In this document: piece by piece, positions 14,839-30,227 of the stretch | Numbering within the stretch: the first letter of the stretch is position 1 | Layout of the letters: every line of letters starts with the position of its first letter | From: Spirosomataceae bacterium | Lineage (GTDB): Bacteria > Bacteroidota > Bacteroidia > Cytophagales > Spirosomataceae | Length of the DNA: 32,131 bases | Reading direction: 5' to 3' | Assembly: GCA_025455795.1 (NCBI GenBank) | Contig: JALOLW010000033.1 | Location: 1 to 32,131 of the forward strand | The notes under the pieces: generated by a model | What the model was told of the DNA's origin: nothing | The model's database searches: none | What the model saw: the letters and a program-made list of their open reading frames with translations, nothing else | Translations under genes and position numbers: made by a program

Positions 14839-16050
14839 TCATTCATTGGCCAAGCTTCCCTCCTCTGAAAGTGTTATTTGATGCTTCATGATCACCATAT
14901 TTTGGTTTTCTTTTTTGCTTTCGTAGGCCAATAAAAGTCCTTGCTTCGTGGCCAAAAGCACGGGGTAAGTAGCATTTTCAAAGTCGGGCGTAAGGTAAGA
15001 AGTACTGAGAATTTTGCCTTTTTTGTCCAACACTCTTAGGCCAATTTTGGTAAAAAAACGCCCTTCTTTTTCCATTGATTCGTCCCAAACTACCACCAAA
15101 TTTTCCCGATAAGACAACAATTGTGGGTGCTTGGCCCGAATGGTCAAGTGGTGCGTAAACAGGCTATCCCCTCCCATTTGCGCTACCCGAACGCCCGACT
15201 GATGCTGCGCCGAAGTGCCACTGAACCAACTCACAAACAGGTCGTTACCCACTTGCGCCATGCTCGGCCCCGTATGCGGACAGGCGGCCACCTGCCAGCC
15301 GTCTGGATACACCGAGCGGGGGTTTGAAAAGGTTTTTCCACCGTTGGTTGAGACCGCGTGCGCCATGTCGCGGATGTTGTCGGCGGCGAGGTCGCGGTAG
15401 GTGACGTGCAGGTGATTTTTGTTGTCTATAAAAAGTACCGTGCGGCAACACTGACAGGCGTTGGAGTCCACCACTACCTCATTGGAGAAACCGCCCTGGG
15501 GCAGCGTTTGCACAAATTTCACGCTGCGACCTTCGTAGTCCCCCATCTTTTCGTCGAGCCACACGATACCCAACTCACCATTGGGCAGACGGGCTATGTC
15601 GCTGAATGAGTGGCCTTTGCCCGCTGTGGCGTCGCGGTGAACAAACGCGGGCTGGCTCCACGTGTTGCCATTGTCTTTGGAAAAACTGTACAGCAAATCG
15701 CCCGCACGGGGCGCTTCTTTGGTTGGGCGACGACGCTCAAAAGTGGCGACAATCGTGCCGTCGGCTTTGAAGGCTACTTTGGGCATTCCTTCGGCATGAA
15801 CCGAAAAATCAGTAGGCGCATTGACCTTCACTTTGGGGCCGAAGGTTTGCCCGTCGTCGGTCGAAACGGCGAAGAAAAAATAACTTTTGTCACCGTCTTT
15901 TTCGGCCCAACTCAACACAGGATTGCCACGGTGGTCGGTGCTGAGGCGCGGCGTAGTTCCCGTCAAATTGGGATTTGAAATGGGTTGGGCATTGTTTTGG
16001 GGCATAAAACCCCAAAACAATGCTGGCAAAAATACGAGGAGATGTTTCAT
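14839..16050 (-). CDS. Secreted BNR/Asp-box (sialidase-like) propeller protein with CQCC and CPH motifs
   Basis: Signal peptide; Asp-boxes STDDGQTF, SKDNGNTW, STNGGKTF; NACQCCRT, ACPHTGP; starts 13 nt after the receptor stop. Confidence 0.8.
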   Translation of the reverse strand: MKHLLVFLPALFWGFMPQNNAQPISNPNLTGTTPRLSTDHRGNPVLSWAEKDGDKSYFFFAVSTDDGQTFGPKVKVNAPTDFSVHAEGMPKVAFKADGTIVATFERRRPTKEAPRAGDLLYSFSKDNGNTWSQPAFVHRDATAGKGHSFSDIARLPNGELGIVWLDEKMGDYEGRSVKFVQTLPQGGFSNEVVVDSNACQCCRTVLFIDNKNHLHVTYRDLAADNIRDMAHAVSTNGGKTFSNPRSVYPDGWQVAACPHTGPSMAQVGNDLFVSWFSGTSAQHQSGVRVAQMGGDSLFTHHLTIRAKHPQLLSYRENLVVVWDESMEKEGRFFTKIGLRVLDKKGKILSTSYLTPDFENATYPVLLATKQGLLLAYESKKENQNMVIMKHQITLSEEGSLANE

Positions 16051-16063
16051 GTTATTTTCTGAA

Positions 16064-18424
16064 TTATTTTTTTCCTACAAAATTGTATTGAATACCCATC
16101 ACGAAAGTACGTGGTGATCCTGGCGTAAAAGTAGCGCGGTCGGTGGCGGCGTTGCCTCGGGTCACGTTGTTGGTGTACAGTTCGTCGGTGGCGTTGAGTA
16201 CATTCACAAATACTTCCACCCCTTTCCACTCGTAGCCCGTTCGTATGTTGAGCAGGCTCATGCCTTGCAGGCCAAACGCCGTGCGGTCGTCGTAGCGCGA
16301 CGTATTGACTTGGTTGGTAAACCAGGGCGACAAGTACTGCCACTCGACAGCAACCCGAAAACCTTTGAACCAGCGGGGTTTGTAAAAAATCTCGGTGTTG
16401 GAGCGGAAACGCGGGGCCGAGGGCATATCAAATCCATTTACGTTTTTGACCACGTCGGCGGTGCGTTCTGACAGCACAAATTCCACAAATCGGTGAATAG
16501 AGTGCGCCCCACCTGCCCGCACGAGCCATTCTTTGTTGGGTTTATAGGTCAGCCCAAATTCTACACCACGGTGAAGTGTTCGGCCCGCGCTGCGGCTGTC
16601 GGTCGAGTTGTCGGGAAGGCGCACACTCAGGAGTTCGTCGTAGCCATTCATCTGATAAACCGCCGCGTCCACGTACAGTTTGTTGTTGAGCAACGACGCC
16701 CAACCACCCATCTCTACGTTGTCGAAACGAGCGGGTTGAAGGTTGTAAAAAAACAAGTCGCCGTTGGGGGCGGGCGTAGTGCGGCGACGAAAAACAGCCG
16801 TGACACTCGGCGGGGCAAATCCCTGTGAGTAGTTGGCATACAGCCCTTTGCCTTGCCCCAAATCGTAGGTAAGGCCAATTTTTGGGGTCAATTGTTGGTA
16901 GGCTCTTACACCCGAAGTATTGTCCAAAAAATTGGTATAATCAAAACTCATGCGGTCGAAACGCCCGCCCAATGTGAGCAACAACTGCGGCAAGGGGCGC
17001 ACATCCAACTGGGCGTAGTAGCCCGTGCTGAGGACGTTGGCCTCGTAGTTGCCTACTTTCAAATCGGGGCGTTCACGGACAAACTCGTAGCGTTCTACCG
17101 AGCGGCGGTCGGCCCTCAAAATGGGGTTGAGTTCGGTTTGATAGGCCAAATAATTCACGGGCGAATAGTCGGCAGTAGCTCCTACGAGTAGTTTTGAATT
17201 GAGAAAATCAAACTTTTGGCTGTGCTGGGCAATCAGGCCGTAACTACTGAAAATCGTGTTGTTGATTTCGCCTGCGGCGGTGGTAGCACCCGTGCGCCAG
17301 GTGATGCGAAACGTAGGCTGCATGGGGTAGTCGTTGTAGCGATAAAAACCCGTGACGGTGGTTTCGGAGCGGTCGTTCCAGCGGTGTTCGAGCGTGAGGC
17401 GGCTGCGAAGGGCCTTCACACGGCGGTAGGTAAAATCGGCCACGCTGCGGTACGTGCGGCTGTAATAGGCGATACTGTCCAGACTGCCCCCCATCTGTGA
17501 GTCGTAGTTGTTGTAGCTCCACGTATTGATGAGTTGGGTTTTATCGCTGATTTTGTATTCCAAACGGGCATTGAGGGCCGTTTTGTCAAAGTCCGTGGTC
17601 GTGAGCCAGGAGTTGCGCTGACGCGCCACAAATCCTCCCGCATACACACCGAAGTGTTTGGTGAGCATCCCGCCCGCGCTGTACTGCACCCGTTGGTAGC
17701 CAAACTGATCGGCTTGGAGACCAATTTTTGCGGTAGGTACTGCCGTAGGCCGATGCGTGATAAAATTGATAGCGCCACCTACTGCCTCTGGCCCATACAA
17801 CGACGACGCGGGGCCTTTGACCACCTCCACATTGCTAATGGCGAAGATGTTCTGTTCGATGAGGGCGTTGTGGTTAAAAAGTCCCATCGGACGAATCGGC
17901 ACGCCGTCTTCCATGTACAAAAAGTACGAATTGAGGGTCAGCGGCTGCCGAATACTCATGCCGTGTTGTTCGTTGTTGAGATTGAGCATCACCACGCCCG
18001 GGGCTTTGTTGATAAGCTCGTAAATATTGACGGGTTTGGTATCGTTGAGCAACTGGTTCGACAGTTTGGCGATGGCCACGGGGGCTTCGGTGCGTTTTTG
18101 GGCTTCGCGGCTGGCCGTTACGACCACCTGCTGCAACTCCGAAACCGAGGGTTCGAGAGCCACTTGGAGAGCGGTTTGAGCGGGAATTTCAACAGTTTGG
18201 TAGCCTATGGCCGATATGACGATGGTTGCTGTGGTGGAGGGTATCGAAAAAGCCCCCATGGCATCGGTGACAGTGCCGACGTTGCCATTTTTGATTTTGA
18301 CGGTGACGCCTACAATCGGCTCTTTGCTGTGAGCATCGAAGATTTTGCCTTTGATTTGTTGGGCAAAAAGTGGACTGCTGCCCATTACAAGGCACAATAA
18401 GCCCAATATGAAGTTGGATTTCAT
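16064..18424 (-). CDS. TonB-dependent receptor
   Basis: Signal peptide, N-terminal carboxypeptidase-regulatory-like domain, VVVTASR, VEVVKGPASSLYG..AVGGAINF plug, C-terminal GSPRTFVMGIQYNF. Confidence 0.95.
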   Translation of the reverse strand: MKSNFILGLLCLVMGSSPLFAQQIKGKIFDAHSKEPIVGVTVKIKNGNVGTVTDAMGAFSIPSTTATIVISAIGYQTVEIPAQTALQVALEPSVSELQQVVVTASREAQKRTEAPVAIAKLSNQLLNDTKPVNIYELINKAPGVVMLNLNNEQHGMSIRQPLTLNSYFLYMEDGVPIRPMGLFNHNALIEQNIFAISNVEVVKGPASSLYGPEAVGGAINFITHRPTAVPTAKIGLQADQFGYQRVQYSAGGMLTKHFGVYAGGFVARQRNSWLTTTDFDKTALNARLEYKISDKTQLINTWSYNNYDSQMGGSLDSIAYYSRTYRSVADFTYRRVKALRSRLTLEHRWNDRSETTVTGFYRYNDYPMQPTFRITWRTGATTAAGEINNTIFSSYGLIAQHSQKFDFLNSKLLVGATADYSPVNYLAYQTELNPILRADRRSVERYEFVRERPDLKVGNYEANVLSTGYYAQLDVRPLPQLLLTLGGRFDRMSFDYTNFLDNTSGVRAYQQLTPKIGLTYDLGQGKGLYANYSQGFAPPSVTAVFRRRTTPAPNGDLFFYNLQPARFDNVEMGGWASLLNNKLYVDAAVYQMNGYDELLSVRLPDNSTDSRSAGRTLHRGVEFGLTYKPNKEWLVRAGGAHSIHRFVEFVLSERTADVVKNVNGFDMPSAPRFRSNTEIFYKPRWFKGFRVAVEWQYLSPWFTNQVNTSRYDDRTAFGLQGMSLLNIRTGYEWKGVEVFVNVLNATDELYTNNVTRGNAATDRATFTPGSPRTFVMGIQYNFVGKK

Positions 18425-18430
18425 GCGAAT

Positions 18431-18452
18431 AGCCCCCTGCCCCGACGGGGAG
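18431..18452. repeat. Half copy of the GC hairpin repeat just upstream of the receptor ATG
   Basis: AGCCCCCTGCCCCGACGGGGAG resembles the clpB-internal arm GCCCCCCCCGCCCCCGAAGGGGGTG. Confidence 0.5.
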
Positions 18453-18536
18453 TTTTTTGGTGATACGAGGCGTTTGTTTTTGATTGAAAATAAGGCTGTT
18501 GAGTGACAAACAGCGAATCTTGCAGAACACAGATTG

Positions 18537-18620
18537 CCGCGGCGGCGGACCGTACAGATTGAACGGGTCTGAACGGATAAAAAACAGCTTCTGTTTCATC
18601 AGTTCAATCCGCCGCTGCGG
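18537..18620. repeat. Large imperfect stem-loop between the leader ORF and the receptor
   Basis: CCGCGGCGGCGGA (18537-18549) pairs with TCCGCCGCTGCGG (18608-18620); GATTGAAC (18557-18564) pairs with GTTCAATC (18602-18609). Confidence 0.65.
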
Positions 18621-18637
18621 TTTTCTATCAACGCAAT

Positions 18638-19030
18638 CTAAACAAACGCAGGAGGGCGTAGCAACGCGGGGGAGTAGTCGGTGAGTGGGCGCGACTGGTA
18701 GGAAAATAAAGTAGTAGTTTTTACTTCAAAAATTTTGCTTAGAAACAGGTCAAAAAGTTGGTCGTCAAAGACATCTTCCAGCACTTTTTTGATGTTGTGG
18801 CTTTGGCGTTCGGCTTCGTTTTGGGCTTTTTCTTCGGCTATTTTGGAGAGGGTTTTGGCCAGATAACATTTACCATCGCAGTGCAGCTCAGGCTTGAAGC
18901 GATTTTCGCAGAGATGCTGTACGATGTAGTCTTTGCGTAACTCAAAATCCAAATACACCACTGGCACGAGCAGCGTTTTGATGCTGACCAAGGCCAATAA
19001 AAGCAATGCTATGTGGTTTTTGAACGACAT
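18638..19030 (-). CDS. Small membrane-anchored Cys-motif protein with C-terminal RPP; candidate metal-sensing leader (CruR/CutF-like architecture)
   Basis: N-terminal hydrophobic segment, CENRFKPELHCDGKC, ends LLRPPAFV; first gene upstream of a TonB-dependent receptor; the ORF is well supported, the function is inferred. Confidence 0.65.
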   Translation of the reverse strand: MSFKNHIALLLLALVSIKTLLVPVVYLDFELRKDYIVQHLCENRFKPELHCDGKCYLAKTLSKIAEEKAQNEAERQSHNIKKVLEDVFDDQLFDLFLSKIFEVKTTTLFSYQSRPLTDYSPALLRPPAFV

Positions 19031-19050
19031 AATTGGGTGAAACCGTGTTG

Positions 19051-19095
19051 CAAATATAAACGAAATAGGTCAAATATAAATTGATTTCGGTCAGT
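19051..19095 (-). promoter_or_regulatory. Promoter of the leader-receptor unit with a Crp/Fnr-like box
   Basis: TATATTTG on the minus strand at 19058..19051 (duplicated at 19078..19071); TTGAT-TTCG-GTCAG at 19081-19094. Confidence 0.5.
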
Positions 19096-19098
19096 TTT

Positions 19099-19389
19099 TT
19101 ACCTAAACAACATCATCTTGAAATCAGTCAGGGCATTGACCGAATGTTGTTGTTTGGCCTTGAACGAAAGCCCGTCGCCTGGTGATAAAAATATGGCTTC
19201 GCCTTCCAAATTGAAGTTGGCGTTGCCTTCCAAGACGTAAATAAACGCATCGGTCGGCGAGGCGTGCGGGTCGAGTCGCTCGCCTTTTTGGAGGCTAATG
19301 AGCACCACCCGAAAATGCTCATTCGCCTCCAATTTTTTGGTTTTGACACCTTCGTAAGGCACCAAATCGGGTACGTTGTGTAACAGCAT
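19099..19389 (-). CDS. Cupin domain protein
   Basis: LQKGERLDPHASP, VLEG, LSPGD, QHSVNA. Confidence 0.85.
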   Translation of the reverse strand: MLLHNVPDLVPYEGVKTKKLEANEHFRVVLISLQKGERLDPHASPTDAFIYVLEGNANFNLEGEAIFLSPGDGLSFKAKQQHSVNALTDFKMMLFR

Positions 19390-19401
19390 GGCCGTAAGCG
19401 A

Positions 19402-19947
19402 TTATTTGGGAACTACCACCGCATCAATGACGTGAACGTAGCCATTGGAGGCCCGTACCGAAGCCAAAATCTTGGCATCGCCGATATAGACATCTTTGCC
19501 TTTCACTTTGAAAGTGGCGTTGGTGCCGTCCACCATGCCCATGCTTTGGCCGTCTTGAAAGAAATCGGCAGCCAGCGCAGAGGTCATCACGTGGTGTTCC
19601 AAAATGGCTTTGAGTTTGTCTAAATTTTCGGGTTTGAGCAAATCTTCCACCGTACCAGCGGGGAGTTTGTCAAAGGCCGCGTTGGTGGGGGCAAATACCG
19701 TAAACGGCCCCGCGTTGGAGAGGGCATCTACCAAGCCCGCTGCTTGCACGGCTTTCACGAGGGTGGTATGGTCGGGCGAGCCAACGGCCACTTTGACTAC
19801 GTCTTTCTGGGAGTCATCGTCTTGCACGCCCGACTGTCCTGCGGCGGGGGCTTCGGTAGTGGTAGTAGTTTGGTTGTCTGATTGTTGTGACGATTGGCAG
19901 GCCGCCATCAATACGACTACCGCCAAAGAAAAGAATTGAATTTTCAT
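19402..19947 (-). CDS. Fasciclin (FAS1) domain lipoprotein
   Basis: Lipobox MAAC; GPFTVFAPTNAAF, ASNGYVHVIDAV. Confidence 0.93.
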   Translation of the reverse strand: MKIQFFSLAVVVLMAACQSSQQSDNQTTTTTEAPAAGQSGVQDDDSQKDVVKVAVGSPDHTTLVKAVQAAGLVDALSNAGPFTVFAPTNAAFDKLPAGTVEDLLKPENLDKLKAILEHHVMTSALAADFFQDGQSMGMVDGTNATFKVKGKDVYIGDAKILASVRASNGYVHVIDAVVVPK

Positions 19948-19991
19948 TTTTTGGAAAGGTTTAAATTGTCAAAAAAATTGGTCGTGAAAAA

Positions 19992-21449
19992 TTATGGAAC
20001 TCTGACAATTTTTGTGGCTAACCTCATCCCCATCCCTTCTCCTGCCAGGAGAAGGGGGCAATACATAGTCCCTCTCCTGACAGGAGAGGGATACAAATCC
20101 TTTTTGCTAAAAATCCGCGTGGCTACGGCCACTGGCCAAGCGACCCAGACCAAAAGCACCGCTAACGCCACCAAAAGGCCGTATTGGGTACTGAAAAAAT
20201 CTTGGAAAACCGCCCCCGTGAAGCCCATCAACGCCGAAATGTCCATTTTCATCAGCACCATCACCCGCGCCAAATCAGTAGGGTTGAGGGCGGTGAGGAG
20301 CAGCATGGGTTTTTCGAGGGGATAATCGCTGAACGAAAACAAAATGCCCAGCACCAGCCCGTCATAAACCAGCGCAAAATAAAACCACAGGACCAAGGCC
20401 AGTCCGATGCCTTTGGCTTTGTCGCGGGTGACGACTGCCGCCAAAAACGCCAACGAAACGAAAGTAAGGGTAAGTAGCAACCCGCTGATAATCAGTACGG
20501 CACCGCGTTGGCTTCCGTCAAACAGCACCGTAGGCACGCCCAAGCCCACCAAAAACGCCAAACTCAACGAGGCCGCCACGCCCGCGTACTCGCTCAGAAA
20601 AATCCGCTGCCGACTTAGCGGCTGCGCCAGTAGCAGTTCGATAAATTCGTAGGAATTGTAAAAATGAATGGTCGAAAAAATGATGCTGACCAGCGGCACT
20701 ACCATCAAAATGATATTGAGCAGGCTCAAAAGCCCTTTGTTGGAGTCGGATTCAAACCCGAAAAAACTGAGCGTAATGGCCAGCAACAACGCGGTGTAGC
20801 CCAGCACGAAGCGGTTGCGAACAATGTCGTACAGGACGTATTTGGTGATTTTGTTCATTGTCTTTTCGAGGTCGTCTAAGTCGGCCATGACGTGGGAGGT
20901 AATCAAAATCAGCTTGCCTTTGGCGTGTTCGCGTTGGATTTTTTCTTTCAACAACTCACTCGCCAACGGGTCCAACCCCGCCGTGGGTTCGTCGAGAATC
21001 AGCACGGGCGGGTCAAACAAAAACGCCAGCGCCGCGCTTACTTTCTGTTTGGTTCCTCCCGACAGCGTGCCGAGGGCTTTGTCAAACATGGCTCGTAGTC
21101 CAAACGTGTCGAGCAGGTCTTCGTCGAGGGTATTGCTATTTCCTTTTCGCAAGTCCTTCATCATTTCAAACAACTGCCTGATTTTCAGATTGGCAGGGTA
21201 ATGCCCAATCTGCGGCATATAACCGATTTGGGTGCGGTACTGATACGCGCCTTGTACGGGTTGATTGTCAAAATAGACCGTTCCTGCATCGGGAATGACC
21301 AATCCCAAAAGGATTTTGATGAGCGTGGTTTTGCCCGAGCCATTGGGGCCAATCACGGCCACGGCGCGGCCTCGCTCCAAGCGCACGTTTACATCGCGCA
21401 AGACGGTCAGCTTGCCAAATGATTTGTGAATATGTTCGGTACGAATCAT
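19992..21449 (-). CDS. nosFY: NosF-NosY in-frame fusion (C-terminally truncated ABC ATPase + permease) with a repeat-derived 33 aa tail
   Basis: GPNGSGKTT, LSGGT, LDEPTAGLDP, ITSH, then MNKITKY (ATG 20858) permease with ELLLAQP, LNPTDLAR and KKDL; follows nosD. Confidence 0.85.
   Translation of the reverse strand: MIRTEHIHKSFGKLTVLRDVNVRLERGRAVAVIGPNGSGKTTLIKILLGLVIPDAGTVYFDNQPVQGAYQYRTQIGYMPQIGHYPANLKIRQLFEMMKDLRKGNSNTLDEDLLDTFGLRAMFDKALGTLSGGTKQKVSAALAFLFDPPVLILDEPTAGLDPLASELLKEKIQREHAKGKLILITSHVMADLDDLEKTMNKITKYVLYDIVRNRFVLGYTALLLAITLSFFGFESDSNKGLLSLLNIILMVVPLVSIIFSTIHFYNSYEFIELLLAQPLSRQRIFLSEYAGVAASLSLAFLVGLGVPTVLFDGSQRGAVLIISGLLLTLTFVSLAFLAAVVTRDKAKGIGLALVLWFYFALVYDGLVLGILFSFSDYPLEKPMLLLTALNPTDLARVMVLMKMDISALMGFTGAVFQDFFSTQYGLLVALAVLLVWVAWPVAVATRIFSKKDLYPSPVRRGTMYCPLLLAGEGMGMRLATKIVRVP
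19995..20090. mobile_element. Second, one-ended copy of the MITE-like repeat, overlapping the nosY 3' end
   Basis: 19995-20075 is identical to 4502-4598 apart from a 16-nt insert in the latter; continues into a second hairpin CCCTCTCCTGaCAGGAGAGGG. Confidence 0.85.
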
Positions 21450-22699
21450 CGGAGTCGGTTGGGTTTCATTTGAGGAGTTTCGTCTTTGAGGGCTTCGGGC
21501 GTGAAGCTCGGAATGATTTTTTCGATGCGGTCGAGCAGCATCACCGTAAAACTCCGCATCAGCATCATGGCTTGGGGTAGCCGCTCAATGACCGTGGCGT
21601 AAAGACTCACGGGCCGAAAAGGCACGTCGCCGATACCGTCGCGGTTGAGGTCGTAGCCTTCGTATTTGTCCCAGTAGTTGTGCGTCACTTTGTTGAGTAC
21701 CACGTCGCCGTTGGTGGCTACGTCGAAGGTATTGCCTCTGAAATTGCTGTAACTGAGGGTATTGTCGTCGCAGTTGGCTTGCACGCGCACGGCGTAGCCA
21801 TTTTCTACAAAATCATTTTTGGTAAAGACCGACCGACTGCATCCTTCCATATAGACCCCGATGGTGTTGGTCCGAAAGATATTTTGCTCAATGTGGCTGT
21901 CCGAAATGTCTTTCAAGAGTAGTCCGTAAGCCGCGCCACCCCAATTTCGCTCAAAGACATTGTGCTGCATGGTCACAAATTTGGTGTACATGACCGCCAC
22001 CCCCGCGCCATTTTGGTGGAAGTGATTGTAGCGATAGGCGTTGTTGTGCGAAAACATAAAATGCAGGCCGTAGCGGATGTTTTGGTGGCTGTCGTTGCGC
22101 TCAATGATGGAGTTGGTCACAAACTCAAAATAAATTCCGTCGCGGTGGCCTTGCACGTGGTTGTCGGTGATAAAGACGCTGTCGCACTTCCAAGCGTGGA
22201 TGCCATTGCCCGTATTTTGTTCTTCTTGCGGATTACCGCGCACGTCGTTGTTTTTGACCAAACAATGGTCAGAAGCCGACAGATAAATGCCAAAGTAGCA
22301 GTTGCGGAGGCGGTTGCCTACGACCCGCACGTAGCTCGATTCGAGAATTTTGATGGCTGCCCAATCAATCATACTTGTTACGCCTACGTTTTCAAATTGA
22401 ATGCCCTCGATGCTCACGCCGTCGGCTTTGATGGTAAAAATCTCACCTTTTTGCTGGATGTCCAACACGGGAAAGCCCCGTCCGATGACCGTCAGTGGTT
22501 TGTCAATGACGATGTTGCTGACGCGATACAAGCCCTTCTCAATCAAGACAGTATCAAAGGCACTGGCCGTGGCGATGACACGGGCGAGGTGTTGAGAAGG
22601 CGTTATTGTCCATACCTTGGCCCGTGCATTTGTTGCCATCAAACAGGCCAAAAAGAGCAGTAGGATTGTGGGACGATATTTCCAATCAAAAAAGCGCAT
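21446..22699 (-). CDS. nosD: Nitrous oxide reductase maturation protein NosD
   Basis: GNGIHAWK, RDGIYFEF, RYGLHFMFS, NYWDKYEGYDLNRDGIGDVP; start reassigned to ATG 22699 (MRFFDWK..., signal peptide). Confidence 0.95.
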   Translation of the reverse strand: MRFFDWKYRPTILLLFLACLMATNARAKVWTITPSQHLARVIATASAFDTVLIEKGLYRVSNIVIDKPLTVIGRGFPVLDIQQKGEIFTIKADGVSIEGIQFENVGVTSMIDWAAIKILESSYVRVVGNRLRNCYFGIYLSASDHCLVKNNDVRGNPQEEQNTGNGIHAWKCDSVFITDNHVQGHRDGIYFEFVTNSIIERNDSHQNIRYGLHFMFSHNNAYRYNHFHQNGAGVAVMYTKFVTMQHNVFERNWGGAAYGLLLKDISDSHIEQNIFRTNTIGVYMEGCSRSVFTKNDFVENGYAVRVQANCDDNTLSYSNFRGNTFDVATNGDVVLNKVTHNYWDKYEGYDLNRDGIGDVPFRPVSLYATVIERLPQAMMLMRSFTVMLLDRIEKIIPSFTPEALKDETPQMKPNRLR

Positions 22700-23726
22700 A
22701 TACTTCTTTCCAAGTGAGGAGTTTGGCATCGGCAAATTGGGCTTTGGTGGCCTCGGCAGCGGCGCGGTCGGCAAAAGCCGCCACATCGCCGCGCATGGGG
22801 CTGCGGAGTTCGCGGCTATTGACAAATACCGCCGTGCGCGCGTCAATCAGTTCGCCAGGGCGAGTGTAGTCGTTGACTACCAAAAATTTCAACGTGTTTT
22901 CGTCAATCGCGTTTGTTTTCAAGTATTTGACCGTACAACTTAGGTCATCGAACTTAAACGCCTTGCCTTTGTCAGAAACGATTTCGGCGGCAAATTTTTT
23001 GTCCATAATCGTCATCTTGCAAAACACGCAAGCATCTTGCCCGTAGCGAATAGGTTCGGGTCCCTCGGCGCAGCCAAAAGACATTGCGCCCAAGCCCATC
23101 ACTACGGCCACGGCGGCAGGGGCAAAAGTGCGCGGCGCGGCGCGGGTTGGTTTTTCTTTGCAAAAATAAAACTCACAAGCTACCGCCGTCGCTACCAAAA
23201 TCCCCGCGAAGATAAACACCCAGCCGCCCGTGTCGGGTATCGAATACGCCCCAAAGTTGAGCAATTCTTTGTAGCCAATGAGGGGCGGTTGGTATGACAT
23301 CCCCGGCACTTTGATGGCCGCGTCGGGGCTGAGGTTGTGGCCGTATTGATAACCCCACCGCCAAAAATCGTATAAGGCTACTACGCCCGCCAACACCATG
23401 AGAATCAGGTAGCTGACGAGCATTTTACGGCTTTTGAGCAAGGCCGTAAGCAACCCAAACACTATGTAAAAACCCACCGCGTAGGGCAGAATCTGGAACT
23501 CTGGAAACATCTCCTCCTTGATGTGCGCCATGCCGATGTAGTGGTTGAGACCGTTGATGATTTCGACATCACCCGAAAGTTTGTTGAGCCAGATGTACAT
23601 AGACAGTCCTTCGGGGTACTGCGGTGCCCAGAGGTCTATGCGCCACAGTGGCAGAAAGTAGGTAGCTATCAGCGACACCGAGACCGCGACGAGCATTCCA
23701 AGACTGAGTTTTTGGAGTGGTTTCAT
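22686..23726 (-). CDS. nosL: NosB-like membrane protein fused to a NosL copper chaperone
   Basis: PLWRIDLWAPQYPEGL, LNHYIGM, YGHNL, YQPPLIG (NosB-like); CVFCKMTI, FDDLSC, SPMRG (NosL). Confidence 0.85.
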   Translation of the reverse strand: MKPLQKLSLGMLVAVSVSLIATYFLPLWRIDLWAPQYPEGLSMYIWLNKLSGDVEIINGLNHYIGMAHIKEEMFPEFQILPYAVGFYIVFGLLTALLKSRKMLVSYLILMVLAGVVALYDFWRWGYQYGHNLSPDAAIKVPGMSYQPPLIGYKELLNFGAYSIPDTGGWVFIFAGILVATAVACEFYFCKEKPTRAAPRTFAPAAVAVVMGLGAMSFGCAEGPEPIRYGQDACVFCKMTIMDKKFAAEIVSDKGKAFKFDDLSCTVKYLKTNAIDENTLKFLVVNDYTRPGELIDARTAVFVNSRELRSPMRGDVAAFADRAAAEATKAQFADAKLLTWKEVYALF

Positions 23727-23751
23727 GTTATTTTCTTTTAAACTGCCCGTA

Positions 23752-23784
23752 AACTTCCCGAAAGTTCAAAACTTTCGGGAAGTT
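23752..23784. repeat. Perfect 15-bp-arm palindrome between nosZ and nosB-L
   Basis: AACTTCCCGAAAGTT caa AACTTTCGGGAAGTT. Confidence 0.85.
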
Positions 23785-23799
23785 AGAGTTAGTTTGAGG

Positions 23800-25839
23800 T
23801 TACTTCATCGCCAGTTTGGTGCCTTTGATTTTGGCGACATTAGCGGTTTTTTGTTCGGCTTCGGTCGTGGCGGTTTTGCCCGTGTGCCACGTGAGCGGTA
23901 CGTTGCTACCCGCAGGCGACACCCGCACGTAGCCTTGCATTTCTTGGTGCAGTGCCGAGCAGAAATCGGTGCAGTACATGGGTGTGACACCCACTTTGGT
24001 TGGTTTCCATTTGAGGGTTGAAGTTTCGCCGGGCATGATGAGTAGCTCGGCGTTTTGGGCACCGCGCACCGCAAAACCGTGCGGTACGTCCCAGTCTTGT
24101 TCGAGGTTGGTCACGTGGAAATATACCTCATCGCCCATTTTAACTCCTTCAATGTTATCGGGTGCAAAGTGCGAGCGGATGGCCGTCATATAGACGTGTA
24201 CTTCGTTTCCTTTCCGAACCACCTTGGTTTCTTTTTCACCTTTGGAAACGTAGGGGTGCTTATTTTCTTCGAGTTTGAAGATTTTGAGCGAATTTTTCTC
24301 GACCAATGACGCTGGAATCGCCTCGGCGTAGTGCGGCTCACCGATGGTCGGGAAGTCGAGCAGGAGCTTCATTTTTTCGCCCGTGATGTCGTACAACTGC
24401 GCCGATTGGGTCAATTCGGGGCCCGTGGGCAGGTAGCGGTCTTTGGTGATTTTGTTGTATGCAATCACGTATTTGCCGTGGGGCTTCATGGTAGGCCCGC
24501 CGGGGATACACAAGTGACCCACCGAATAGTAAGTAGGTACGCGGTCCACGACTTCGAGTTTTTCGATGTTCCATTTCACCAGTTCAGACGACACAAAAAA
24601 CGATGTGATGGCGTTGCCCTGTCCGTCAAACTCGGTATGGAGTGGCCCCAAGCCGGGCTTTTTGACCTCGCCGTGCAGTACGGCATCGTATTTCAAAACC
24701 GGAATGCCCGCAAAATCACCGTCAAAGGTTTTGGCCGAGATGGCTTGCTGCATTTTGTCAAACGAAAATACAGGAATCACCGCTGCCAACTTGCCCGAAC
24801 CTACGATAAACTTGCCCGTGGGGTCCACGTCGCAGCCGTGTGGCGACTTGGGGCATGGCATAAAATACAACATACCGGGGCAATCTTTGGGGTCGAGGGT
24901 CATCACCTCGTTGATAATGGTCGAAGTGGCCGAGTGGGTTTCGTCGCTATACACGTTGTGGGCAAACTTCGCCGCTTCTTTTTTGCCTTTGCCTTGGGCC
25001 AAAAACTCCTCGGCTTTTTTCCAATTGACCGCCAAGATGAAGTCTTTGTCTTTTTGGGAGGCGTTTACTTCCAGCAGTGTGTTGGCCTGCTCGGTGTTGT
25101 AGCACGAGAAGAAAAACCAGCCGTCTGAAGGCCCGCGCCCGCAGCGTGCCAAGTCGAAACTCACGCCTGGGGTTTTGATTTGGAACTTAATGCCGAGCCG
25201 TCCCGTGGTTTTGTCAATGTTGATAAAACTGATGTAGCCTTTGAAATTTTGTTTAAAACTGCTGATAGGCACGTCGGCGTTGGCATCGGGTGGTACCGAA
25301 AACCGCGAACTTGCTACGGCGTATTCGGTGTTGGCGGTAATAAACGGCGAGGAGTGGTTGCCACCCGAATTGGGGATTTCAATGATTTCTTCGGTGCGGA
25401 AAGTCGAAAGGCTAATCCGCGCAATCCGAGGTGTGTTGTTGCCATTGACAAACGCCCAACGTCCGTCGTGTTCGCCGTTGGTCATCGAAAGGGCGATGTG
25501 GTGGGAGTCGTCCCACGGCACAAATCCGTGCGAGGTATTGAGCATGGGCTTGGTTTCTTCGGTGTAGCCCCACCCGTTTTCGGCGTGTTGTGAAAACACG
25601 GGTATATTGCGAAACACCCGCCCCGAAGGCAGTCCCACGACCGATACTTGGCCGTTGAAACCACCCGAAACGATGTTGTAAAACTCGTCGTGCTTGCCCG
25701 GGGCAACATACACCTTCTCGGCGGCATCGCTCGCCATAGACGATTCGGCACTTGCTTTGCCCGCATTTTCGGGTTTGCAGGCCAAAAAGCCTCCTACCAG
25801 CACCGCCAACGCGATGCCACTAATGACATTGGTTTTCAT
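23800..25839 (-). CDS. nosZ: Clade II (Sec-dependent) nitrous oxide reductase
   Basis: CuZ His motifs DDSHH, GNH, SPHGC, GPLHTEF, VGHL, GEPHY; CuA VPHGF and CTDFCSALHQEM; no RR motif, lipobox-like FLAC; start reassigned to ATG 25839 (MKTNV). Confidence 0.98.
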   Translation of the reverse strand: MKTNVISGIALAVLVGGFLACKPENAGKASAESSMASDAAEKVYVAPGKHDEFYNIVSGGFNGQVSVVGLPSGRVFRNIPVFSQHAENGWGYTEETKPMLNTSHGFVPWDDSHHIALSMTNGEHDGRWAFVNGNNTPRIARISLSTFRTEEIIEIPNSGGNHSSPFITANTEYAVASSRFSVPPDANADVPISSFKQNFKGYISFINIDKTTGRLGIKFQIKTPGVSFDLARCGRGPSDGWFFFSCYNTEQANTLLEVNASQKDKDFILAVNWKKAEEFLAQGKGKKEAAKFAHNVYSDETHSATSTIINEVMTLDPKDCPGMLYFMPCPKSPHGCDVDPTGKFIVGSGKLAAVIPVFSFDKMQQAISAKTFDGDFAGIPVLKYDAVLHGEVKKPGLGPLHTEFDGQGNAITSFFVSSELVKWNIEKLEVVDRVPTYYSVGHLCIPGGPTMKPHGKYVIAYNKITKDRYLPTGPELTQSAQLYDITGEKMKLLLDFPTIGEPHYAEAIPASLVEKNSLKIFKLEENKHPYVSKGEKETKVVRKGNEVHVYMTAIRSHFAPDNIEGVKMGDEVYFHVTNLEQDWDVPHGFAVRGAQNAELLIMPGETSTLKWKPTKVGVTPMYCTDFCSALHQEMQGYVRVSPAGSNVPLTWHTGKTATTEAEQKTANVAKIKGTKLAMK

Positions 25840-25924
25840 TTGATTGGAATTTAGATTAAAAAGATTTTTTGAGGTCTGATTGTGGCTCGTTCGGGGCTGC
25901 CCGTGCGGCACGACAGCGCGATAC

Positions 25925-26389
25925 TTATTTCACACCGTCGTTTTTACGCATAAATTCCAGAATGTTGCGGGCTTCATCGGCACTTACATTTTGGTTAGGC
26001 ATCCGTACCAAACACTCTTCGAGGAGTTTTTGGGCTTCGGCATCTTCGGCGAGCATCATATCCACATTCGTAATCATGTTGATAATCCACTCGGGCTTGC
26101 GTTTGGTGGTTAGGCCCTTCCAACTGGGGCCTACGAGGCGTGGTCCATCAAGTTTGTGGCAGGCCGAGCATTTGAGGTCATAGACTTCGTTGCCCGCTTT
26201 GACCATTGCTGGGTCGAGCGGCGTGGAGAGCTTGACCTCGGTGACCTCCGTACCGTGAACTTCGGGCTGTTTTTCCAGCACGGAGTCATCGGTTTTGGGA
26301 GCTTCGGCGCGTTGTTCGGCCCCCTTACCGCAGCCATACACAGTTGCCACGAGAGTAGCAAGCAGTACGTAGAGAAAAATCCGTTTCAT
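25925..26389 (-). CDS. Monoheme cytochrome c lipoprotein (NosC-like)
   Basis: Lipobox VYGC; CSACH; VGP; MP axial Met; directly upstream of nosZ. Confidence 0.92.
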   Translation of the reverse strand: MKRIFLYVLLATLVATVYGCGKGAEQRAEAPKTDDSVLEKQPEVHGTEVTEVKLSTPLDPAMVKAGNEVYDLKCSACHKLDGPRLVGPSWKGLTTKRKPEWIINMITNVDMMLAEDAEAQKLLEECLVRMPNQNVSADEARNILEFMRKNDGVK

Positions 26390-26460
26390 TGTTGTGTTGC
26401 ATTATGTTTTGAGGAAGGTGAATTGTCAAAGATGGCTTATCTCATCTATTTTTGACAATA

Positions 26461-26506
26461 CAAACGTAGCAACACGATGGGTCAGAAGTTTATGGTTTGA
26501 ATCATA
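26461..26506 (-). promoter_or_regulatory. nos operon promoter with a Crp/Fnr-like box
   Basis: TACGTTTG at 26468..26461; TATGAttcaaaCCATA at 26506..26491. Confidence 0.6.
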
Positions 26507-26588
26507 AAGAGTTTGTGATTTATATTGGTTTTTGGATATAAACACTTACAAATATGATTCGTTGAAACAAAAAATAGAGTATTTATGC

Positions 26589-27188
26589 TTATTTTATTCT
26601 TAATACACGCTGTTGATGTAGTTGCAGTTCGCCCTTGTCGGCCAGTTGTTTTACTTTTCTAATGACCGTTTCTACGCGCAGTCCCGTCAAATCGGCCAGT
26701 GTTTGGCGCGTGAAAGGCACTTCGTAGGGTTGATTGGGGCCACAAGATTTGTTTTTGAAATGGTCAATGATGATCAGAATCAGGTCTTCGGGGCGTTGGG
26801 TGGTCATACTCGTTAAGATTTTGGTTTTGTAGCAAAGCCTTTTGCACAGCACCTGGGTCAGTTCGAGATGAATGACGGGATTTTCTTTGAGGAGTTGGAT
26901 AAAGTTGGCTTTTTTGAGTACCCATATTTTAGAATCAGCCAATGCCCGCGCGTCGGCAGGGTAGGGGAAATCGCCGAGCAGGGCGGGTTCGCCAAAACTT
27001 TCACCATTGGCAAAAAGGCCTTGGATAAAGTCACAAGTTTCGCCTGAATTGAACATTTTAACTGTTCCTTCTTCCAGCTGAAAGTAAAAATGCGCGGGTC
27101 TATCTTCGTGAAAAATGTATTCACTTTTGCGAAAATGATTGAGCGAAGCACCGTAGTGCTGCAGCAAAGATGGGGCGATGGAGTACAT
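26589..27188 (-). CDS. Crp/Fnr family transcriptional regulator
   Basis: cNMP-type domain GESFGE..YPADA; HTH TRQTLADLTGLRVETVIR. Confidence 0.93.
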   Translation of the reverse strand: MYSIAPSLLQHYGASLNHFRKSEYIFHEDRPAHFYFQLEEGTVKMFNSGETCDFIQGLFANGESFGEPALLGDFPYPADARALADSKIWVLKKANFIQLLKENPVIHLELTQVLCKRLCYKTKILTSMTTQRPEDLILIIIDHFKNKSCGPNQPYEVPFTRQTLADLTGLRVETVIRKVKQLADKGELQLHQQRVLRIK

Positions 27189-27569: not shown

Positions 27570-30227
27570 ATGAACTTCAATCAATACACCATCAAAGCCC
27601 AAGAAGTAGTGCAACGTGCGGTGCAGATTGCACAGGGCAACCAACAGCAAGCCGTTGAAACGGGGCATATTTTACAGGCTATTTTGGAAGATGACCCCAA
27701 CACGTCGCAGTTTTTGATGAAAAAACTCAATGTAAATGCCAACTTGCTCAATGAAAAACTAAAATCAATCAACAGCAAATACCCCAAAGTAGCAGGCACT
27801 GCCGCCACCGAATACATCAGCAATGACCTCAATGCAGCATTCCAAAAAGCCCAAAGCTACCTCAAAAGCATGGGCGACGAGTTTGTGAGTGTAGAGCTAC
27901 TGTTTTTGGGGCTCACTACTGGCAAAGATACCACCGCCCAACTCATGCGAGAAGTGGGTTTCAACGAAAAAGGCTTATTGGCAGCCATCAAAGAACTAAG
28001 AGGAAAAGACAACGCCGTGAAAGACCAAAACGCCGAAGCTAAGTATCGTTCGCTTGAACGGTACAGCAAAAACTTAAACCAACTCGCTCGTGCGGGCAAA
28101 ATAGACCCCGTCATTGGACGCGACGACGAAATCCGCCGGGTGCTGCAAATTTTGGCCCGTCGTACCAAAAACAACCCCATGCTACTCGGTGAGCCGGGTG
28201 TGGGCAAAACCGCTATCGTGGAGGGTTTGGCGCAGCGTATCGTACAAGGCGACGTGCCAGAGCAGTTGAAAGACACCGAAATTGTATCACTTGATATGGG
28301 TTTACTCATTGCGGGAGCCAAGTACAAGGGGGAATTTGAAGAACGCCTCAAAGCGGTCATCAAAGAAGTGACCGACTCTGACGGCCAAGTGATTCTGTTT
28401 ATTGACGAAATCCACACGCTCATCGGGGCGGGGGCAGGAGGTGAGGGCGCTATGGATGCCGCCAACTTACTCAAGCCTGCCCTCGCGCGGGGCGAATTGC
28501 ATACCATCGGTGCCACCACGACCAAAGAGTACCAAAAGTACATCGAAAAAGACAAAGCCCTGGAGCGGCGTTTTCAGGTAGTGACCGTGGATGAACCCAA
28601 CGAGGCCGATGCCATCAGTATTTTGCGCGGTATCAAAGACAAATACGAGCTTCACCACGGTGTGCGTATCCAAGACGACGCCGTGATTGCCGCCGTGGAG
28701 TTGTCGAGCCGCTATATTTCTGACCGCTTCTTGCCCGATAAGGCCATTGACCTCATGGACGAGGCCGCCGCCAAACTGCGCCTCGAAATGGACTCCGTAC
28801 CCGAAGAACTCGACGACCTCAACCGTCGTATCATGCAGCTCGAAATCGAGCGCGAAGCCATCCGCCGCGAGAATGACAAAGACAAAGAAGCGCGTTTGAG
28901 CAAAGAATTGGCCGACTTGAACGAAGAACGAACGGCTTTTAAAGCCCAATGGGAACTGGAAAAAGGAAAAATCAACGAACTCCGCGCCCTTAAAGAAGAA
29001 CTCGAAAAGCTCCGCCTCGAAGCCGAACAAGCCGAACGCGCAGGCGACTACGGCAAAGTAGCAGAGTTGCGATATGGCCGTATTCCTGAATTGGAACAAA
29101 AAGCCCCCCCCGCCCCCGAAGGGGGTGCTGATTCATTGGCATTTTCGGATTACACCCCCTTCGGGGGCTTGGGGGCCTGGGGGGCTGTCACGCCCGAAAA
29201 CATCGCGGAGGTGGTGGCCAAATGGACGGGAATCCCAGTCAGTAAAATGCTCCAAAGCGAGCGCGAAAAACTGTTGAATCTCGAAACCGAACTTCAAAAG
29301 CGGGTGGCGGGCCAAGAAGAAGCCATTGAGGCCGTAGCCGACGCGGTGCGCCGCTCGCGGGCGGGCTTGCAAGATCCTAAACGCCCCATCGGTAGCTTTT
29401 TGTTTTTGGGGCCTACGGGCGTGGGCAAAACCGAATTGGCCAAAACCCTCGCCAACTACCTTTTCAACGACGAAAACGCGATGGTGCGGATTGACATGAG
29501 CGAGTACCAAGAACGCCATACCGTAAGCCGATTGGTGGGTGCGCCTCCCGGCTACGTGGGCTACGATGAAGGCGGCCAACTCACCGAGGCCGTGCGTCGC
29601 AAACCGTACAGCGTGATACTGCTCGACGAAATCGAAAAAGCCCACCCCGACGTGTGGAACGTGATGCTCCAAGTGCTGGACGATGGCCGCCTTACCGACA
29701 ACAAAGGACGCTTGGCCAACTTCAAAAATACGCTCATTGTCATGACCTCCAACATCGGCTCTGACATCATCATGGAGAAGTTCAAGGAGGCGGGCAACAA
29801 ACTCGAAAAGGGTTGGAAACTCTATTTCAAAGAAGAAGCCAAGGAAAATGTTTTGACCTTGCTCAAACAAAGCGTACGGCCAGAGTTTTTGAACCGTATT
29901 GACGAAATCGTACTCTTTGACCCGCTTGGCAAAGACAACCTGAAACAAATCGTAAGGATTCAGTTCAACCTCATCAGAGAGCGATTGGCCGAGCAAGGCG
30001 TGACCTTGGACGCTACCGACGACGCCCTGCTCGCGTTGGCCGAAGAAGGTTATGACCCTGCTTTTGGGGCAAGGCCATTGAAAAGAGTCCTCCAAAAACG
30101 CATCTTGAACGAGCTTTCTAAACAAATCCTTTCCAACAAAATCACCAAAGACTCGGTCATTATGATGGAGTTGGACGAGGAAAAAAAGGTTGTTTTTGAG
30201 AATATAAGCGCCGTGGAAATAGCATAG
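27570..30227 (+). CDS. clpB: ATP-dependent disaggregase ClpB
   Basis: Two AAA+ domains ([16 protein letters not shown]), KYKGEFEER, coiled-coil M domain, [17 protein letters not shown]. Confidence 0.98.
29103..29186. repeat. Palindromic repeat embedded in frame in clpB
   Basis: GCCCCCGAAGGGGGTG (29112-29127) is the exact reverse complement of CACCCCCTTCGGGGGC (29153-29168), with further C/G runs outside. Confidence 0.85.

Follow-up and report, generated by a model that had tools for sequence, protein, structure and literature searches.

The window analysed here, the whole stretch of 32,131 nucleotides (nt) from a Spirosomataceae bacterium to which all positions refer, contains a unit of three genes next to a clade II nitrous oxide reductase (nos) cluster, encoding a putative leader peptide, a TonB-dependent receptor and a predicted beta-propeller protein. 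With a probability of roughly two thirds (0.68), the unit is a conserved Bacteroidota operon that is induced at low copper and imports copper, likely for all copper enzymes of the cell including NosZ and two heme-copper oxidases. Its gene order, its conserved residues, the copper genes in its neighbourhoods and a strict alternation of the propeller with PepSY_TM were observed across genomes. By analogy, the leader-receptor-propeller unit can be regarded as a variant of the CruR/CutF-type copper operons. Its novel parts are the receptor subfamily, a propeller with a cysteine pocket that alternates with PepSY_TM, and a recurrent but non-obligatory attachment to nos. The genes concerned are:

18638..19030, minus strand: leader open reading frame (ORF), 130 amino acids, candidate for a translation-arrest peptide that senses copper, from an unnamed Bacteroidota family
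16064..18424, minus strand: TonB-dependent receptor, 786 amino acids, with Pfam plug, barrel and CarboxypepD_reg-like domains
14839..16050, minus strand: BNR-repeat protein, 403 amino acids, predicted to be a periplasmic beta-propeller of seven blades, with a Sec signal peptide
19099..27188, minus strand: clade II nos cluster (Crp/Fnr regulator, cytochrome c, nosZ, nosL, nosD, fused nosF-nosY, fasciclin, cupin), the context of the unit

The leader starts 68 nt past the cupin gene, and leader, receptor and propeller lie on the same strand as the nos genes, which bears out the sequence-only reading that had placed three co-oriented genes downstream of nos-fasciclin-cupin. The call of nosZ relies on a TIGR04246 score of 920 bits, compared to a cut-off of 625. 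By the names of its close homologues, the source genome is Runella-like. Leader and receptor are separated by 213 nt in the window and by 58 to 365 nt in 40 orthologues.

Copper availability limits the reduction of N2O. Clade II nosZ was matched in 134 of 401 sampled genomes of the phylum, yet no experimentally characterised copper importer for them was found in the literature searched. The unit supplies a receptor subfamily apart from OprC, CrtA and PqqU as well as a widespread propeller annotated as 'sialidase', which is probably a copper protein, and its leader belongs to a predicted arrest-peptide family that screens for RAPP or RGPP would miss.

Conservation and genomic neighbourhood of the unit

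Besides the 401 genomes of the phylum, 201 genomes of the order were sampled; only five or two candidates per genome were scored, so that the receptor and nosZ counts are lower bounds. The receptor was matched in 37 genomes of the order sample and 21 of the phylum sample (56 distinct, one match being partial), while nosZ was matched in 36 order genomes in addition to those of the phylum (159 distinct). Around the 56 receptors, a leader was located no more than two ORFs upstream in 44 cases. The gene following the receptor encoded the propeller in 22 genomes and PepSY_TM in 32; both were never present, and neither was found in two. Copper-related genes (nos, SCO, MbnP/H, heme-copper oxidase family) were detected within about 10 kb of 19 of the 56 receptors, compared to only one of 35 other receptors of the source genome, whose contigs are short (mean visible span 10.7 kb).

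Receptor and nosZ occurred together in 22 genomes. In eight of these, including the source genome, they lay within about 10 kb of each other, in seven they were far apart on one contig and in seven they were on different contigs, one of the latter cases being ambiguous at contig ends. The eight nos-adjacent cases span five families and seven genera. Such an adjacency is far above chance and therefore, NosZ is one likely client of the unit. On the other hand, 34 of the 56 receptor genomes gave no nosZ match and 137 of the 159 nosZ genomes no receptor match. With a receptor in only 22 of the 159 nosZ genomes, the original proposal, which tied copper import to clade II NosZ alone, is too narrow. 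The source genome itself carries two heme-copper oxidase subunit I genes; MbnP, an OprC-like receptor and nirK were not found in it.

Leader, receptor and propeller

Three segments of the leader are relevant to its presumed function:

18956..19012, minus strand: hydrophobic N-terminal segment (residues 7-25; Kyte-Doolittle mean of 2.58 across 19 residues), a predicted signal or membrane anchor
18866..18910, minus strand: C41-x9-C51-x-G-x-C55, a Cys motif and candidate site for Cu(I) that does not vary among 35 aligned members
18650..18661, minus strand: LRPP (IFHPP in the consensus of the family), separated from the stop by three residues, candidate arrest motif from sequence and family alignment

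In the 35 aligned members, not only C41, C51 and C55 but also P126 and P127 are invariant, and the distance from the last Cys to xPP is 63-70 residues in 53 of 54 measurable leaders. Among 75 homologues collected near receptors, a set redundant for Larkinella, the C-termini read FHPP (38), FQPP (12), FRPP (7) or LQPP (6); xRPP was found in only eight and RAPP in none. The initial description as a Cys/RPP leader holds for the Cys motif and for the window copy ending in LRPP, but the motif of the family is FHPP rather than RAPP or RPP. No match to DUF2946 (PF11162) was obtained for any of the 35 aligned members at E-values up to 1, and the leader profile gave the Ralstonia DUF2946 protein no score; an Atlas similarity of 0.88 to a cluster named DUF2946 is a lead only. 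The leader family was matched in 134 of the 201 order genomes, far above the count of the receptor. Neither a six-frame motif scan nor tblastn revealed a further leader in the source genome, where the leader is a single-copy gene.

To these, further leaders were added from 60 loci picked among 150 listed matches, known receptor loci being avoided; 58 of the loci gave 64 leaders. Within the next three genes, 49 of the 64 had MbnP, MbnH or an OprC-like receptor whose plug carries CxxxM, while 12 had none of these and three had no co-oriented downstream gene in view. Siderophore-type receptors are among the exceptions. The first gene after the leader was MbnP in 28 cases, MbnH in seven, an OprC-like receptor in four, and YtkA followed by an OprC-like receptor in two.

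Individual loci of the leader family revealed further arrangements. At L177 (G178), L178 (G073) and L179 (G121), the leader precedes an OprC-like receptor with CxxxM that lies no more than about 12 kb from nosZ; in G178, nosZ is directly followed downstream by the leader, a YtkA-like gene, the receptor and nosD. The three receptors look like genuine Bacteroidota equivalents of NosA. Where leaders precede siderophore-type receptors (L167, L169, L170, L159), PepSY_TM comes next in three, and two Spirosomaceae leaders of this kind end in PPPC; they possibly form a subfamily whose metal specificity differs. An unnamed lipoprotein of about 150 amino acids with a VMxxHD motif, several Met and no Pfam match (L031:7052-7492, L157:2931-3416, L067:13913-14353) recurs in leader-headed operons and beside SCO and is a candidate copper chaperone. 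Some leaders precede proteins of about 700 amino acids secreted by the type IX secretion system (L176:2892-5111, L182, L194), one of them with a sortilin-like propeller match. Of the eight copies of the leader in G174, several belong to tandem units of MbnP and MbnH (L161 = G174:C4; L157 = G174:C35). In G019 (L041:8715-10931), the N-terminus of the leader is seemingly fused in frame to the receptor ORF, which may be an assembly error.

The model of the receptor shows a standard plug-and-barrel fold with a pLDDT value (predicted local distance difference test) of 87. Among 25 of 28 NCBIfam families listed, the protein scored under every family cut-off. M146, H154, M156, H185, H401, H644 and M667 are invariant in 41 non-redundant homologues and H618 is kept in 98%; specific to the family are M146, H154, M156 and H185 of the plug and H618 and H644 of the barrel. 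The sole Cys sits in the signal peptide and is kept in 15% of the homologues. Cys/His/Met motifs had been noted in all three genes, which is correct for the leader Cys and the CQCC motif of the propeller, whereas the receptor conserves His and Met but not Cys. Its nearest solved structure, and also its best profile match, is PqqU/YncD at 18% identity. In a profile alignment to 9c4o/6v81, whose register may shift by a residue or two at this identity, H154 and H185 align to two plug loops of PqqU bearing Q84 and Q121, while H401 and M667 are common to both proteins. According to PMC12124388, Q84 and Q121 contact the ligand and Y99/R304/R365 are the signature of PqqU. In the receptor, this signature aligns to Leu or Met, to Asn and to an unconserved position, and the NF041535 score is 88 versus a cut-off of 1200. 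The CxxxM plug site of OprC is absent, the mature receptor having no Cys at all, TIGR01778 (OprC/NosA) was not among the 25 of 28 families listed, and OprC ranks 46th among the fold matches. PDB entry 9rvq, which by title and length we consider to be CrtA, gave a weak partial match (E-value 1e-26) that left the His358 region unaligned. From these comparisons the receptor appears to be an unnamed Bacteroidota subfamily, distinct from OprC, CrtA and PqqU. Outside chromosomes it was found at the thresholds used only in three plasmids, all of Bacteroidota; one receptor locus is from a metagenome-assembled genome labelled Akkermansia (L085), presence beyond Bacteroidota being otherwise not surveyed.

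The propeller carries two Cys motifs:

15445..15456, minus strand: C199-Q-C201-C202, invariant in 32 aligned members; CECC in Ralstonia
15274..15282, minus strand: C257-P-H259; C257 and P258 invariant, H259 in 74% of 38 homologues

The CQCC propeller of the sequence-only reading was confirmed, as C199, C201, C202 and also C257 are invariant in the 32 aligned proteins. In the model (pLDDT 92.8), seven blades were counted, and H85, H147, C199/C201/C202, C257/H259 and H308 are each located at or just before the first strand of a blade. By general propeller geometry, first-strand positions face the central pocket of the top face. Hence, these Cys and His residues would line such a pocket, the positions being taken from the secondary-structure order. 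Elsewhere, the protein is annotated as 'sialidase' or 'exo-alpha-sialidase', and BNR repeats are present. Sialidases of GH33 are defined by a FRIP motif and a six-bladed fold. This identity was rejected, since [FY]RIP is absent in 32 of 32 propellers, the blades are seven and other propellers gave better fold scores (top hits Z 29-31, compared to Z 21-22 for sialidases). A role as a surface lid is not favoured either: the window copy has no lipobox, and 10 of 32 members match a simple lipobox pattern that misses some lipoboxes.

Homologues of the propeller exist in other phyla and on 172 plasmid records. In Ralstonia (CP076416.1), a DUF2946 leader is followed by a receptor and a propeller homologue (E-value 1e-58) with CECC and CPH, and in Phaeobacter a homologue closes a copper-oxidase/cupredoxin cluster. 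Together with the 49 of 64 leaders and the neighbours of the receptor, this independent genomic context supports both the copper assignment and the CruR/CutF analogy of the sequence-only reading. In G022 and G167, a paralogue inside the nos operon (L090:9670-11721, L091:8130-10221) follows nosY and a CopD-like gene and precedes a truncated globin, without such a receptor. The source genome has a second paralogue (L123, G000:C421:15929-16546), which is apparently split by a stop into ORFs of 209 and 143 amino acids.

Regulation, mechanism and alternative explanations

Between the leader and the receptor, the following elements were identified:

18660..18752, minus strand: C-rich, G-poor stretch in the leader 3′ coding region (C-G skew +0.41), candidate Rho utilisation site
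18640..18649, minus strand: 5′ arm of a predicted long-range RNA stem, immediately past the PP codons (duplex -16.6 kcal/mol)
18470..18479, minus strand: 3′ arm of this stem from folding and duplex prediction, ending 45 nt before the receptor ATG
18428..18463, no strand assigned: short dispersed repeat-like element between stem and receptor start, matched over 28-36 nt at 87-89% identity by stretches of six further contigs of the genome

In the 93 coding nt that immediately precede the proline motif, C exceeds G in 35 of 40 leader-receptor pairs, compared to 181 of 512 control gene ends, and a second leader set showed the same skew in 53 of 57 cases. Folding of 18420-18680 gave z = -3.25. In orthologues, the 3′ arm of the stem is often located within about 10 nt of the receptor ATG. 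The 24 nt after the PP codons pair better with the 40 nt upstream of their own receptor (mean -10.4 kcal/mol) than with those of others (-6.7 kcal/mol), and the cognate stem took one of the top two ranks in 14 of 40 cases versus 4 of 40 upstream-window controls and 10 of 120 ordinary gene pairs. The data are suggestive of a stem connecting leader and receptor.

TAnnTTTG is known as a promoter consensus of Bacteroidetes, and two such sites precede the leader:

19071..19078, minus strand: first TAnnTTTG (-7 type) promoter-like site
19051..19058, minus strand: second TAnnTTTG promoter-like site, close 5′ of the leader ATG

The motif alone is weak evidence because it occurs 35 times in the window on both strands (64 kb), but it is also present in the -120 to +30 region of 26 of 40 orthologous leaders. 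A simple terminator scan listed no terminator between cupin and leader, and therefore read-through from nos is possible. A box of the Fnr type upstream of the leader (19081-19094) was rejected, as it is kept in one of eight nos-adjacent and two of 37 other loci.

The mechanism, all steps of which we infer, may be as follows. The membrane anchor of the leader would enter Sec co-translationally and the ribosome would pause at (F/L)(H/Q/R)PP, where a spacer of about 67 residues would be long enough for the three Cys to have left the exit tunnel, probably towards the periplasm. During its pause, the ribosome would sit over the putative Rho site, which is rich in C, and open the stem between leader end and receptor upstream region, so that receptor and propeller are made. 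With copper bound to the leader Cys, the pause would end and, as with CruR, expression of the unit would be shut down. The receptor may bind Cu or a Cu chelate via H154 and H185 of the plug with the nearby Met, and the periplasmic propeller may receive, release or reduce copper in its Cys/His pocket. It would fill the slot held elsewhere by PepSY_TM (CrpH-like), a putative copper reductase. A more far-reaching joint interpretation is put forward tentatively, the balance tilting slightly against it: the leaders would be a Bacteroidota arrest-peptide family of their own, with a three-Cys sensor, an FHPP stall, a Rho site and a covarying stem, controlling a new copper receptor with a His/Met plug together with the propeller. 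As part of the same tentative scheme, the seven-bladed propeller with its four-Cys/His pocket, misannotated as sialidase across several phyla, would be a new class of periplasmic copper protein and functionally replace the membrane reductase PepSY_TM. If true, the unit, having been recruited next to nos repeatedly, would allow these N2O consumers to keep NosZ loaded when copper is low.

Several points weigh against import at low copper by this route. No tested copper marker was nearby in 37 of the 56 receptor loci, and the sampled genomes are related, so that the counts are not independent. The receptor is similar to neither OprC nor CrtA, and H401 and M667, being shared with PqqU, are probably structural. 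FHPP is not among the demonstrated arrest motifs. In the second set the signal for the stem was lower (9 of 57 versus 2 of 57), and a simulated ribosome footprint in the window left the predicted accessibility of the receptor start about the same (0.41 to 0.42). Finally, at least four leaders precede siderophore-type receptors which are over the TIGR01783 cut-off or cluster with one.

The last point would fit a response of leader and receptor to a metal other than copper (Zn, Ni, Co or Fe) or to more than one metal, the more so as PepSY_TM accompanies some of these receptors and His-rich sites bind Zn and Ni too. This is nevertheless unlikely in view of the 49 of 64 leaders before copper-linked families and of the recurrent receptor neighbours, namely SCO, MbnPH, heme-copper oxidases and nos. 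Just as unlikely is a copper-related unit that is switched on by copper excess and serves handling or detoxification. For CutF, PMC9973294 describes copper-enhanced stalling that unfolds a stem over the next start, which matches the stem found here, and the Phaeobacter homologues of the propeller belong to a copper-oxidase cluster. However, the regulated gene encodes an energised importer, the same leader family precedes OprC-like receptors and the C-rich leader segment mirrors the cruR Rho site.

A dedicated accessory for the maturation of clade II NosZ, as a Bacteroidota counterpart of NosA co-regulated with nos, is very unlikely. The adjacency in eight of 22 genomes across several families, the missing terminator between cupin and leader and the co-occurrence in the order sample (13/37 versus 23/164, Fisher p 0.007) speak for it, but in the phylum sample the enrichment was not significant (p 0.09). 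An accessory of this kind should be restricted to nosZ genomes and regularly occur in the cluster; by contrast, most receptor genomes (34 of 56) had no nosZ match, most nosZ genomes no receptor match, only eight of 22 pairs were adjacent and the Fnr-like box was kept in one of these eight. An organic-substrate system, either an importer of pyrroloquinoline quinone or a glycan receptor with a true sialidase, is the least probable explanation and hardly credible: PqqU/YncD is the best structural and profile match of the receptor and the propeller has BNR repeats and the name 'exo-alpha-sialidase', yet the PqqU signature is missing, NF041535 scored far below its cut-off, none of the 32 propellers has FRIP and the best fold matches are propellers other than sialidases.

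Two neighbouring genes showed peculiarities. nosF and nosY form a single ORF of 485 amino acids (19992-21449, minus strand), whose sequence is a singleton cluster. The fused NosF lacks about 48 C-terminal residues, and a gene for 368 amino acids between nosF and nosY in G011 of the same genus is absent here; either a genuine deletion or a faulty assembly may account for the fusion. In ClpB (27570-30227, plus strand), a short in-frame insertion-like stretch near residues 510-540 resembles, by eye, a G/C-rich dispersed repeat.

Comparison with known copper leaders and receptors

No experimental study of the receptor, propeller or leader family was found in a literature search whose coverage left out most subscription journals. 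The earlier statement that no such unit has been characterised in this phylum holds for experiments, but CutF-like Bacteroidota leaders with TonB-type neighbours have already been reported in silico (PMC9973294). RAPP/RGPP upstream ORFs are widespread before TonB genes, none being described before Cu-related genes in Bacteroidota (PMC12992588). DUF2946 was tied to copper uptake in Pseudomonas (bioRxiv 10.1101/072470).

The Ralstonia operon of a DUF2946 leader, a receptor and an 'exo-alpha-sialidase' has the same architecture and a homologous propeller, on whose role no paper was found; unlike the unit here, it has a different leader family and an unrelated receptor subfamily (E-value 3e-7 to the receptor profile). 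With OprC/NosA (TIGR01778), the unit shares a leader-headed receptor near nos, and OprC-like CPNRM receptors follow the same leader family elsewhere in Bacteroidota, but its own receptor has no CxxxM plug motif.

CutF of Rhodobacter capsulatus (cutFOG) resembles the leader in its Cys motif and in a predicted stem near the start of the next gene. In CutF, copper enhances stalling, the stem over the next gene's start unfolds and a detoxifying oxidase is switched on at high copper (PMC9973294), whereas the unit here encodes an importer-type receptor. The same study defined 5,334 CutF-like proteins by rules, about 19% of them from Bacteroidota, in 29 clusters. The leader agrees with the rules, having 130 amino acids (<150), a hydrophobic segment at 7-25, PP at 126-127 (last 15 residues) and a co-oriented gene 213 nt away (<1,000), and its family may already be among the 29 clusters.

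Another close counterpart is the cruR-crtA(bfrG)-crpH operon of Bordetella pertussis, whose architecture has been defined (PMC9426467, PMC12914433, PMC13038864). Both systems possess an exported Cys leader, a C-terminal PP at a fixed spacing, a long intergenic region and a TonB-dependent receptor. As in CruR-type operons, the leader comes first, together with the receptor, PepSY_TM or copper genes. PepSY_TM follows the receptor in 32 of the 56 genomes studied here, and the neighbour families published for CruR operons (PepSY_TM, Sco, MbnPH, OprC) are the same; a Rho site has been mapped in a C-rich segment of cruR (PMC9426467), to which the C-rich leader segment corresponds. By contrast, CruR has CXXC and RAPP at 45 residues, while the leader here has C-x9-C-x-G-x-C with FHPP or LRPP at 63-70 residues and is not a DUF2946 protein. 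CrtA proteins are characterised by an invariant His358 site in the barrel and no conserved Met. Unlike CrtA, the receptor of the Bacteroidota unit has conserved Met in the plug, and the third slot of its operon is often occupied by the Cys-pocket propeller.

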